64,000 bases of DNA. Origin: Escherichia coli (lineage in GTDB: Bacteria > Pseudomonadota > Gammaproteobacteria > Enterobacterales > Enterobacteriaceae). Shown piece by piece: positions 42,996 to 45,437 of this stretch; positions within the stretch are counted from its first letter, which is position 1; each line of letters opens with the position of its first letter. The DNA is taken from the NCBI RefSeq assembly GCF_001677475.2, contig NZ_CP015229.1. One strand, 5' to 3'. The notes under the pieces were generated by a model. The model did not search any database, was not told the DNA's origin, and was given only the letters and a program-made list of their open reading frames with translations. Position numbers and translations under genes: made by a program.

Positions 42996-43871
42996 ATGAG
43001 CGAAAAGCTACAGAAAGTGCTGGCGCGTGCCGGCCACGGTTCTCGCCGTGAAATCGAATCTATTATTGAAGCCGGTCGTGTGAGTGTTGATGGCAAAATT
43101 GCTAAACTCGGCGATCGCGTCGAAGTTACCCCTGGATTGAAAATCCGTATCGATGGTCATCTGATTTCGGTACGTGAGTCCGCTGAACAAATTTGTCGCG
43201 TTCTGGCCTATTACAAACCGGAAGGTGAGTTGTGTACCCGTAACGATCCGGAAGGGCGTCCAACGGTGTTTGACCGTCTGCCAAAGCTGCGTGGCGCACG
43301 CTGGATTGCCGTGGGTCGCTTGGACGTTAACACCTGTGGTCTGCTGCTGTTCACCACCGACGGTGAACTGGCAAACCGTTTAATGCATCCAAGCCGTGAA
43401 GTTGAACGTGAATATGCCGTGCGTGTATTTGGTCAGGTTGACGACGCGAAACTGCGTGATTTGAGTCGTGGCGTGCAGCTGGAAGATGGTCCGGCAGCCT
43501 TTAAAACCATCAAGTTCAGCGGCGGTGAAGGGATCAACCAGTGGTACAACGTGACTCTGACCGAAGGCCGTAACCGTGAAGTTCGTCGTCTGTGGGAAGC
43601 GGTTGGTGTTCAGGTGAGCCGCCTGATTCGTGTTCGTTACGGTGATATCCCTCTGCCAAAAGGTCTGCCACGCGGTGGCTGGACGGAGCTGGACCTCGCC
43701 CAGACTAACTATCTGCGCGAACTGGTGGAGCTACCGCCAGAAACCAGCTCTAAAGTCGCTGTAGAAAAAGACCGTCGTCGCATGAAGGCGAATCAGATTC
43801 GTCGTGCGGTGAAACGTCACAGTCAGGTGAGCGGCGGTCGTCGTTCTGGCGGACGTAATAATAACGGTTAA
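42996..43871 (+). CDS. rluB: 23S rRNA pseudouridine(2605) synthase, 291 aa
   Basis: Track ORF; S4 domain N-terminus, Arg/Gly-rich C-terminal tail. Confidence 0.92.
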
Positions 43872-43887
43872 TTTAAGTTAAGTATAA

Positions 43888-43912
43888 AATAAAGGCCCTG
43901 CGGGGCCTTTCC
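43888..43912 (+). terminator. Hairpin downstream of rluB (putative terminator; left edge of the AT-rich islet)
   Basis: aaaggccctgcggggccttt GC stem about 20 nt after the rluB stop; no strong T-run; approximate coordinates. Confidence 0.4.
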
Positions 43913-44040
43913 TTCATTTGAAGCATGATAAATAGTCGCAGTATTTTAATTTAATTTCATACTTGCTTATGAATAATGCCAGGAAATAGCCACATTACTA
44001 TTTAATTATCTGAGATAAACTCAACGTCAAGAGGTGGGTT

Positions 44041-45063
44041 ATGATTAGATATAGTGGAATATTTCTATCGCTGTTAATGCTTTCAGGTTGTGCAACCGAA
44101 GCATTGAAGAATGAACAAGCTGAAACTGTTATTACTGCGGGTAACAAGGCGGTTGCGGCGAATGCAAGTTTCTTTAAACAATACTATGCTTCTCGTGAAA
44201 ACTTCCTTGTTAATTTTTATGCGACTAATCCGGATTGTGCATTGCGACCTGATTATGAAACGATTATGGAAAATAATACTAATAAAGAGTCCTTATGTTT
44301 GCAATCAGAGAAAGGGGGGAAAACATCGTATAAAGATATTACTAAAATTCAATTGGCAACAACAGAAAAACAAAAACTACTGGCTTCACTTGAGGTCGTT
44401 AATAGTATGAGTTCCTATGTGGAGTTGTTGACGGTGGGTATGGATGTTGAGGATAGTAAACAAATTATATTACTTAATCAGGCGCTCGATCACGCAAACA
44501 ACGCCCAAAAACTACTTGGCGTTTCAGAAGGTGAAGAACTGACTAAGTCAGCTGTGGCTGTTAAAGATTTAGTTCAATATTTCAATGGATTATACAAAGA
44601 GAAGATTAAATCAGAAAATGTTGGTAAAACGGTAGGTAGTGACTGGCCACGACTTCAAAGAAATTTACAAGATTTACTTGATGATATAGCAACGAAACAG
44701 CAGCAAATGGATCGGAATAATTTTGCGAACATCAGTAATAATTTTTATTACTATAATAAGGCCCGGGCAAATACTAAAAATATAGAATTTAAGACGTTAA
44801 AGAACAGGCAGGAATTTTTGAGTGCAGTAATTAATCTTAATGAAAGCAGATTGCGTTCATCTGATCCGGCGGCTCCAGCAATACAAGCTATTAATGCCTT
44901 CATGGATAAAGGAAATCATCTACAAGATTTATACTCTAATAAATCTCTTTCAAAAGCGGATTTAGATCGTAGGAATGAGATCCTGCGTTCTCAAGTTATT
45001 AGTGGTCTACAGGCGTCAGAGGAGCTGGCAAAACTTCTTATTGCCAGCGGAGTTATGTTATAG
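44041..45063 (+). CDS. Hypothetical lipoprotein, 340 aa (accessory, AT-rich; not recognised)
   Basis: Track ORF; SD aagAGGTGGgtt 6 nt upstream of ATG; N-terminus MIRYSGIFLSLLMLSGC with lipobox LSGC then Ala at +2; K/N/Q/E-rich; AT-rich codons (TTA, ATA, AAT) atypical for flanking genes. Confidence 0.8.
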   Translation: MIRYSGIFLSLLMLSGCATEALKNEQAETVITAGNKAVAANASFFKQYYASRENFLVNFYATNPDCALRPDYETIMENNTNKESLCLQSEKGGKTSYKDITKIQLATTEKQKLLASLEVVNSMSSYVELLTVGMDVEDSKQIILLNQALDHANNAQKLLGVSEGEELTKSAVAVKDLVQYFNGLYKEKIKSENVGKTVGSDWPRLQRNLQDLLDDIATKQQQMDRNNFANISNNFYYYNKARANTKNIEFKTLKNRQEFLSAVINLNESRLRSSDPAAPAIQAINAFMDKGNHLQDLYSNKSLSKADLDRRNEILRSQVISGLQASEELAKLLIASGVML

Positions 45064-45072
45064 GAGGTCATT

Positions 45073-45381
45073 ATGAACGATGTGCAAAATCGACGAATAC
45101 TGGCATTGCTCAATATGCTGTACTATGCCTTAGGAAACCGAACAACCTGCGATATATGTCACAAATATTTTATTCTGGTTTTGTCGGTAATGAATAATCT
45201 GACAATTAATTATGGCTCGCAAACGTCACCAGAACTGACTGGTATTAGTTATGAAGATGCTAATGATTTGATCACTGAATTAATACTGTTTATTGAAGAC
45301 GTCAATGCGGATAATGATATGGAATATCCCGCACACTTGAATAAAATTCAAGCTCTTCTTAATTTTGCCGTGGCTAATTAA
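45073..45381 (+). CDS. Hypothetical small acidic protein, 102 aa, translationally coupled to the upstream lipoprotein gene
   Basis: Track ORF; ORF1 stop TAG sits inside SD tAGGAGGt 7 nt before the ATG; no signal peptide; CxxC at residues 26-29; acidic C-terminal half. Confidence 0.75.
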   Translation: MNDVQNRRILALLNMLYYALGNRTTCDICHKYFILVLSVMNNLTINYGSQTSPELTGISYEDANDLITELILFIEDVNADNDMEYPAHLNKIQALLNFAVAN

Positions 45382-45402
45382 GCCATTCAGTATCTAAAAT
45401 TA

Positions 45403-45431
45403 GCACCTCAAGAGGCGATCTTTTGAGGTGC
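45403..45431. terminator. Bidirectional hairpin between the islet and convergent btuR
   Basis: gcacctcaagaggcgatcttttgaggtgc (9-bp stem) about 20 nt after the ORF2 stop and just before the btuR stop; T-rich flank on the minus strand. Confidence 0.55.
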
Positions 45432-45437
45432 TTTCCC

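Follow-up and report, generated by a model that had tools for sequence, protein, structure and literature searches.

An accessory islet between rluB and cobO of Escherichia coli, with an orphan lipoprotein gene followed by a gene for a small acidic protein

The DNA analysed here (the window, a stretch of 64,000 nucleotides of Escherichia coli contig NZ_CP015229.1, assembly GCF_001677475.2) contains a two-gene islet set in Escherichia core chromosome. The genes rnm, yciO, yciQ and rluB lie before it on the plus strand, cobO (btuR) and yciK follow it on the minus strand, and then come sohB, yciN and topA. The convergent genes rluB (stop 43871) and cobO (stop 45438) enclose a segment of 1566 bp, which has a GC content of 32-39% against about 52% in the flanks. 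In an islet-free E. coli (L016) the rluB-cobO spacer is just 39 bp long and carries a different hairpin. Neither repeats nor an integrase are seen at the borders of the islet, and the entire intergenic region differs from the islet-free version. The two genes, called here ORF1 and ORF2, and the other features of the segment are the following:

43872..45437, plus strand: whole islet, from the rluB stop to the cobO stop (composition, the empty site in L016 and the gene map).
43891..43910, no strand assigned: GC-rich hairpin AAAGGCCCTGCGGGGCCTTT directly 3' of rluB, terminator-like on both strands (terminator scan).
43911..44040, plus strand: leader and putative promoter region of the ORF1/ORF2 operon (sliding identity and promoter scans).
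44041..45063, plus strand: ORF1, a predicted lipoprotein of 340 aa, orphan family (ORF list, a weak lipoprotein signal-region match and alignment).
44257..44355, plus strand: hypervariable segment of ORF1, about aa 73-105 (alignment, per-column identity and nucleotide identity).
45061..45067, plus strand: junction, ORF1 stop TAG (45061-45063) overlapping the ORF2 Shine-Dalgarno AGGAGG (45062-45067) (sequence; conserved elsewhere).
45073..45381, plus strand: ORF2, an acidic protein of 102 aa, predicted to be a cytoplasmic four-helix bundle, orphan family (ORF list, structure model and selection).
45148..45159, plus strand: codons of C26-D-I-C29, an invariant CxxC at the start of helix 2 (sequence, alignments and AF2 helix limits).
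45259..45294, plus strand: codons A63-I74, with the signature A-N-x-(L/I)-I-T-E-L-x-L-F-I, in helix 3 (ORF2 family alignment).
45402..45432, no strand assigned: 13-bp hairpin 3' of ORF2 (fold; minus-strand terminator-like match at 45417-45404).

The hairpin 3' of ORF2 has a dG of -20.4 kcal/mol (z -4.35), begins 20 nt past the ORF2 stop and ends 5 nt short of the cobO stop, and it probably terminates transcription in both directions, of the islet operon on one side and of cobO on the other. Where the islet is present there are two hairpins, the first behind rluB and the second common to ORF2 and cobO; the islet-free L016 has a single unrelated hairpin at 680-703 (ATGCCGGA...TCCGGCAT) within its 39-bp spacer. 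As the hairpins are unlike in the two kinds of genome, the terminators seem to have been swapped along with the islet. The 130-nt leader at 43911-44040 is 96-100% identical among the two E. coli alleles of the islet (A and B, described below), E. whittamii and E. albertii, and is conserved at least as well as the adjoining rluB coding sequence. A strict scan detects no promoter in this leader, and a relaxed one gives weak sigma-70 candidates at 43918-43947 and 43950-43977 with 8/12 matches and nothing better, so that a regulatory element may reside in this strongly conserved stretch, which has no good sigma-70 match. No Rfam family matches inside or around the islet. ORF1 has its own Shine-Dalgarno sequence, GAGGTGGG, immediately 5' of position 44041.

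The first-pass annotation of this DNA described the ORF1 stop as embedded in the Shine-Dalgarno of ORF2, with the ATG 7 nt later, and read this arrangement as obligatory co-expression. The overlap is exact, since the TAG at 45061-45063 enters a perfect AGGAGG at 45062-45067. The distance has to be corrected: the spacer between AGGAGG and ATG is 5 nt (tcatt) and the gap from stop to start is 9 nt. Terminator and promoter scans find no terminator and no consensus promoter at the junction, and the sole plus-strand promoter-like site is in the middle of ORF1 (44428-44457). Co-expression of both genes is very likely, given the 9-nt gap, the lack of an intervening terminator or consensus promoter in these scans and the single strong hairpin past ORF2. 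The word obligatory goes too far, because AGGAGG with a 5-nt spacer is strong independently and translation of ORF2 need not hinge on that of ORF1. Sequestration of the ORF2 start in the mRNA was considered as proof of coupling and rejected, since the fold around this start is no stabler than that of shuffled sequences (z -0.8).

Across the aligned loci the close spacing of ORF1 and ORF2 is conserved. The TAGGAGG junction is invariant in the Citrobacter-type loci and is kept in 17 of the 19 metagenome loci; the gap from stop to start is 9-12 nt in the metagenome loci, whereas the Citrobacter-type loci have 6-9 nt according to which ATG is chosen. In a distant pair from Duffyella, which is described below, the stop of the lipoprotein gene precedes a GGAGG by 5 nt, and 14 nt separate stop and start. 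Two gut metagenome loci of allele A (L030 and L031) have TAGGGGG in place of TAGGAGG, a natural weakening of the ORF2 Shine-Dalgarno.

The N-terminus of ORF1 (MIRYSGIFLSLLMLSGC) has a signal peptide and a lipobox, L-S-G-C17, in which Cys17 is invariant and is followed by Ala at +2. Under the established Lol sorting rules, Ala at +2 of a lipoprotein leads to outer-membrane sorting, and ORF1 is probably sorted to the outer membrane. The protein is predicted to be mostly helical, its structure model is unusable (pLDDT 45), and its mature form is not basic, with a pI of 6.3. No transmembrane segment is predicted in ORF1 or ORF2, and searches of Pfam, NCBIfam and PDB profiles find no recognisable toxin or enzyme domain in ORF1. 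Besides the lipid-bearing Cys17, the invariant cysteines of ORF1 are C66 and C86. The hypervariable segment begins right after C66 and spans C86; its column identity is 0.09-0.39, it contains indels, and alleles A and B are 35-48% identical in nucleotide sequence across 44257-44355. Invariant C66 and C86 together with an indel-rich hypervariable segment fit a region that is exposed and disulphide-bonded within an oxidising compartment, and residues 73-105 look like an exposed loop under diversifying pressure.

ORF2 starts with ATG and is annotated in RefSeq as a hypothetical protein. Codon comparisons show that it is a real gene under purifying selection, with a dN/dS of 0.155 against E. albertii and of 0.138 between allele B and E. 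whittamii, so 0.14-0.16 at informative distances; between the E. coli alleles A and B, pS is saturated at 0.81 and pN is 0.14. The N-terminus MND-x-Q is very strongly conserved, and its first codons have synonymous changes across clades, which assigns this conservation to constraint at the protein level. ORF2 has a net charge of -7 and a pI of 4.38; its N-terminal half is at +2 and its C-terminal half at -9, the latter as acidic as the first-pass annotation had described it. The absence of a signal peptide, also proposed there, agrees with our analysis, in which no credible one is found and the N-terminal segment is a confident helix of the bundle. The maximum Kyte-Doolittle mean is 1.06 over 19 residues, and therefore no transmembrane segment is predicted. 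Two hydrophobic helices had been placed near the N-terminus (about residues 9-20 and 32-45): helices are indeed modelled there, and they are amphipathic in the AF2 model and plainly polar in the Duffyella homologue (P0043), so they are neither signal peptide nor membrane anchors.

The CxxC pair, which had been noticed from the start, is formed by C26 (45148-45150) and C29 (45157-45159), both invariant, with H30 next to them. The motif C26-x-x-C29-H30 is invariant within the Escherichia/Citrobacter clade, and H30 is replaced by Lys in P0043. The residues that are invariant in all clades and in Duffyella are M1, N2, Q5, L16, N22, C26, C29, S52, E54, I58, A63, N64, I67, T68, E69, L70, L72, F73, I74, H88, and I92, and the stretch A63-I74 is the most conserved of the protein, the Duffyella homologue included. 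The CxxC with H88 could be a metal site, a redox site or a dimer "hook". The AF2 model of ORF2 is an up-down four-helix bundle with helices at 3-21, 27-44, 60-78 and 82-95 (pLDDT 84.5, pTM 0.79). A Foldseek search of this model against AFDB50 gives one significant match alone, to a family member, and a BFVD structure search gives no match. When the ORF2 model is superposed on that of a 74%-identical homologue in AFDB, the TM score is only 0.55, which makes the packing and topology of the model uncertain; as modelled, ORF2 is a generic four-helix bundle.

ORF1 and ORF2 are orphan families as judged by homology searches. Pfam, NCBIfam, PADLOC and PHROGs return nothing significant for either protein; the defence models of PADLOC-DB v2 contain no family that matches at E up to 1, and a Pfam-A scan of ORF2 gives zf-FCS only, at E 0.14. 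Sequence-profile searches of the PDB with both proteins give chance coiled-coil matches only. Among 5.8 billion clusters, word-indexed searches with ORF2, with ORF1 and with an ORF1 profile find members from Escherichia and Citrobacter only, and no further lineages emerge when 100,044 species genomes, the JGI metagenomes and IMG/VR are scanned. ORF1 has no match in the phage collection, and the pair is absent from the phage and viral collections, IMG/VR included. Some matches labelled as plasmid are E. coli records with 24-41% identity, one of them of 4.9 Mb, and were taken as mislabelled chromosomal sequence. A literature search by accession and by flanking gene names returns nothing on the islet proteins. 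The suggestion, made from size and charge, that ORF2 is an immunity, antitoxin or chaperone-like protein was offered as speculative and is still so: it gains no support from homology or from a specific fold.

Out of 5426 complete E. coli genomes, 1234 (about 23%) contain DNA of ORF1 and likewise 1234 contain DNA of ORF2, and both genes split these genomes in the same way, 775 at identities of at least 95% and 459 at 60-80%. Allele A, with proteins of 340 and 102 aa, is the type found in the window and includes O25b:H4 strains; allele B, with 333 and 102 aa, was met with in L014 and L015. Carriers of the pair include O25b:H4 and JJ1887 strains, members of the pandemic ST131 lineage. The alleles form a mosaic: identity is 93-100% over the end of rluB, the leader and ORF1 codons 1-70, falls to 35-78% over ORF1 codons 71-340, ORF2 and the terminator, and is back at 87-100% in cobO. 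When positions 43601-45700 are compared with L014, L012 and L013, the switch in identity is sharp, near 44250, and reverts at the cobO stop. In amino-acid sequence the alleles are 75% identical in ORF2 and 65% in ORF1, and the ORF1 alleles are homologous over their full length, with no swapped unrelated C-terminal domains. E. albertii has an A-like and E. whittamii a B-like version, so the polymorphism crosses species. By these comparisons the islet exists in E. coli as two anciently diverged alleles.

The pair occupies the slot between rluB and cobO also in Citrobacter sp. ANG330, two related metagenome contigs, E. whittamii and E. albertii, the last two being the sole matches in the scan of 100,044 species-representative genomes. 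The JGI metagenomes hold 22 loci, all of type A or B, and in the 19 of them that are long enough to judge an intact ORF2 always follows ORF1. Neither ORF1 nor ORF2 was found alone in 1.84 billion representative proteins or in the searched contig collections. The view of ORF2 as the partner of ORF1 is borne out by this strict linkage and by an adjacency that persists even in the distant pair borne by an integrative conjugative element (ICE): the counts and allele splits agree in the 5426 E. coli genomes, the gene order is kept in every locus that can be judged, and an exhaustive profile search, in which ORF2 homologues might have appeared widely without ORF1, finds no relatives outside the pair. 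These genomic data support ORF1 and ORF2 as a functional unit. The pattern of presence could reflect largely vertical inheritance plus one deletion, and the range of the family, as sampled, is very narrow: Escherichia, one Citrobacter lineage and one Erwiniaceae ICE.

The distant pair emerged when 1.84 billion representative proteins were searched exhaustively with an ORF2 profile HMM; this search returned the family itself and P0043, a protein of 95 aa (E 1.6e-7) that is 35% identical to ORF2 and belongs to another bacterial family. Its gene is directly 3' of a gene for a 347-aa lipoprotein, 29% identical to ORF1, and the two reside in a PFGI-1-class integrative conjugative element of Duffyella gerundensis (L007, 4943-7220). 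They lie between DtrJ-like and RAQPRD genes, adjoin an Mrr_cat nuclease gene and are near the coupling-protein gene of the element. In a sister ICE of Klebsiella michiganensis (L022, 11846-15103) the same slot is filled by a gene for a metallo-beta-lactamase-fold protein, which has a weak match to anti-Pycsar Apyc1, and by three small ORFs. This unrelated content marks the lipoprotein/ORF2-like pair as mobile cargo in a variable hotspot. Another candidate relative of ORF2, P0047, is a low-complexity eukaryotic mucin-like protein and was discarded.

In six loci (L013, L009, H103, L035, L045, and L046) ORF1 is truncated or interrupted and ORF2 intact, some of these cases being possibly assembly errors, and the reverse occurs in none; this excess of 6:0 is not significant given the 3.3:1 length ratio of ORF1 to ORF2 (p ~0.2). 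E. albertii NBRC 107761 (L013, 2898-4237) has a broken ORF1 and a full-length ORF2, and E. coli MS 21-1 (H103) has an IS1 inside ORF1. Both genes are damaged in L017 and L011. Natural knock-outs of ORF2 only were sought and none was found: P0013 and P0014 are explained by poor assembly and contig-end truncations, and E. coli MSB1_4I (L017, 764-3715) has IS elements in both genes, an IS1 in the 5' end of ORF1 and an ISKpn26 in ORF2 past nucleotide 161.

Several known classes were compared with ORF2. For colicin/pyocin immunity proteins (PF01320) there is no profile match and the PDB profile search gives nothing relevant, and the upstream ORF1 is a lipoprotein without a Pfam or NCBIfam domain, not a nuclease bacteriocin; ORF2 resembles Im7 and Im9 in its size class (about 85-100 aa), acidity, four helices, position directly downstream of the partner gene and co-expression. 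A type II antitoxin would have a recognisable antitoxin or DNA-binding domain (RHH, HTH, AbrB, Phd) and a cytoplasmic toxin partner, and neither is found. The H-x3-C-x2-C motif of zinc-binding anti-sigma factors (ZAS) is absent, as the invariant N22, and not a His, stands four positions ahead of C26. A c-type cytochrome is contradicted by the lack of a credible signal peptide, by Lys at the position of His30 in P0043 and by the absence of a match to cytochrome families. In sequence ORF2 is 7-12% identical to MLKL 4HB, the plant CC/CC-R domains of Rx and NRG1, and HeLo-like/RPW8 domains; de novo designed bundles score equally, so the likeness is that of a generic fold, and, unlike these executors, ORF2 has no attached sensor or kinase domain.

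The arrangement of the islet is closest to a precedent in myxobacteria, where SitA proteins are outer-membrane lipoprotein toxins with the cognate immunity gene, sitI, immediately downstream (PMC5562445), and where these cassettes are polymorphic (PMC5562445; PMC8546572). The islet also has an outer-membrane-type lipoprotein gene, with a lipobox signal in its product, followed at once by a small gene without signal peptide; it is polymorphic, with the 5' part of the lipoprotein gene conserved and its remainder and the downstream gene diverged, and it is associated with mobile DNA through the Duffyella ICE. ORF2 is always present downstream and falls within the same diverged block as ORF1, although the alleles are homologous. 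Unlike SitA/SitI, the islet proteins have no sequence similarity to that system, ORF1 lacks a C-terminal toxin domain of known type in Pfam, NCBIfam and PDB searches, its alleles are homologous throughout and do not carry unrelated C-terminal domains, and no sitB-like accessory gene is present; nor is E. coli known to exchange outer-membrane proteins by a TraA/TraB system. A second comparison is with TraT and TraS, the surface and entry exclusion pairs of conjugative plasmids, of which TraS is an inner-membrane protein. The islet shares with them a lipoprotein gene beside a small gene, a location near a coupling-protein gene in the Duffyella ICE and polymorphism; it differs in that ORF2 is predicted to be soluble, ORF1 and ORF2 match no family by sequence, the slot of the sister ICE holds unrelated cargo, and the E. 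coli copy has no surrounding conjugation genes.

ORF1 and ORF2 form a two-gene operon with ORF2 as its second cistron, and the explanation that we tentatively prefer, at clearly less than even chances, places ORF2 in a conflict-type pair. A single mRNA would start in the conserved 170-nt leader, and ribosomes ending ORF1 would sit on the start region of ORF2, so that the products would be made together, with an output of ORF2 that is probably equal to or higher than that of ORF1. ORF1 would be exported, lipidated and disulphide-bonded in the envelope, and ORF2 would stay in the cytoplasm, perhaps as a dimer or with a metal bound via its CxxC. The pair may then act, speculatively, as a polymorphic module in inter-bacterial competition or in the exclusion of phages or mobile elements. 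ORF2 would be the cognate cytoplasmic partner, which protects the producer from, or holds, the precursor of ORF1 or a re-imported form, and its target would not be mature ORF1 of the envelope. The annotation of both proteins goes no further than hypothetical, and no described family includes them, though the pair is present in about 23% of the complete E. coli genomes. Should it be a toxin-immunity or defence module, it would bring a new protein family into bacterial conflict systems and would account for the deep split into two alleles at one fixed site of the chromosome, while a mere envelope lipoprotein with its helper would make the islet an ordinary lineage marker. The two deep alleles, the ICE-borne relative and the presence in major pathogenic lineages make the pair a reasonable and cheap experimental target.

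The broader reading of the pair as a conflict module has about even chances, set against the lack of any known defence system in the PADLOC searches; the narrower one, in which ORF2 is an immunity protein or holding partner, is possible and rather doubtful. Gene order and tight spacing, the conserved head of ORF1 followed by allelic divergence of its remainder and of the downstream gene, the size and charge of ORF2, and the six loci with ORF1 broken and ORF2 intact against none reversed all favour an immunity-like role, and SitA/SitI is its precedent (PMC5562445). It is weakened by the statistics of that same count, which is not significant, by the absence of any link from ORF2 to immunity, antitoxin or chaperone families by homology or specific fold, and by an ORF1 that has no recognisable toxin domain and is homologous throughout between alleles. 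The predicted compartments also differ, ORF1 being exported and lipidated and ORF2 cytoplasmic, which makes neutralisation of mature ORF1 topologically awkward; mature ORF1, with its pI of 6.3, is not basic and so offers no obvious complement to the charge of ORF2; and conservation is higher in ORF2 than in ORF1, where many toxin-immunity pairs show the reverse. Neither a pathway that exchanges outer-membrane lipoproteins nor a delivery route is known in E. coli. An unlikely alternative, within the same field of conflict, is defence or exclusion triggered at the envelope, in which outer-membrane ORF1 blocks or senses a phage or conjugative element and ORF2 works in the cytoplasm as effector or regulator, for instance as a four-helix bundle whose target is the membrane or a host factor, and does not protect against ORF1. 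A low-GC accessory pair with two ancient alleles, a distant relative that is cargo of a variable ICE slot beside an Mrr-type nuclease gene, a hypervariable loop as expected of an exposed contact surface and the very strongly conserved MND-x-Q of ORF2 are consistent with it. PADLOC and PHROGs give no matches, phage and viral collections lack the pair, and nothing links periplasm and cytoplasm, since neither protein has a transmembrane segment; moreover, the lipoprotein exclusion factors Cor, Llp and TraT work as single genes. The boldest version, a new enterobacterial conflict system made of a lipoprotein toxin with cytoplasmic immunity, or of a defence/exclusion pair whose cytoplasmic bundle would act in the manner of the MLKL or CC-NLR cell-death executors, and of which two ancient specificity alleles occur in extra-intestinal pathogenic E. 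coli and are spread by conjugative elements, is decidedly unlikely, and its toxin-immunity form assumes a route of cell-to-cell delivery that is yet to be described.

The remaining readings take the pair out of conflict. ORF2 could help an ordinary envelope or colonisation lipoprotein, either by keeping pre-ORF1 competent for export or as a redox- or metal-sensing regulator through its CxxC, and tight co-expression, strict linkage, invariant C26, C29 and H88, and the occurrence of the islet at one site in whole Escherichia lineages and in Citrobacter, consistent with a housekeeping-like accessory trait, agree with this. We regard it as quite unlikely, because Sec-exported lipoproteins normally need no dedicated chaperone, ORF2 has neither a DNA-binding motif nor a match to a regulator family, it is intact where ORF1 is broken, and the deep allelic dimorphism would be left unexplained. 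Functional independence, with ORF2 sharing the transcript only and hitch-hiking in the same recombination block, would account for the different predicted compartments and for an ORF2 that stays intact under ORF1 disruption, and the partnership is drawn from linkage and not from direct evidence of ORF1-ORF2 interaction; order and adjacency are nevertheless kept down to 29-35% identity, in ICE cargo and in another bacterial family, and neither gene occurs alone in the 1.84 billion representative proteins or the searched contig collections, which makes independence improbable. Least credible by far is an exported ORF2, a small periplasmic, cytochrome-like partner of ORF1 with RR-ILALL... as Tat/Sec signal and CxxCH as haem c site. 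R7-R8 are followed by a moderately hydrophobic stretch and by a possible A-L-G cleavage site before N22, and C26-x-x-C29-H30 is invariant in the Escherichia/Citrobacter clade. No cytochrome family matches, and the idea is largely refuted by P0043, whose N-terminus is polar and without RR and whose residue at the position of His30 is Lys, and by Asp14, which in most alleles falls inside the would-be hydrophobic core of a segment that is modelled as a confident helix of the bundle (pLDDT 87-92).
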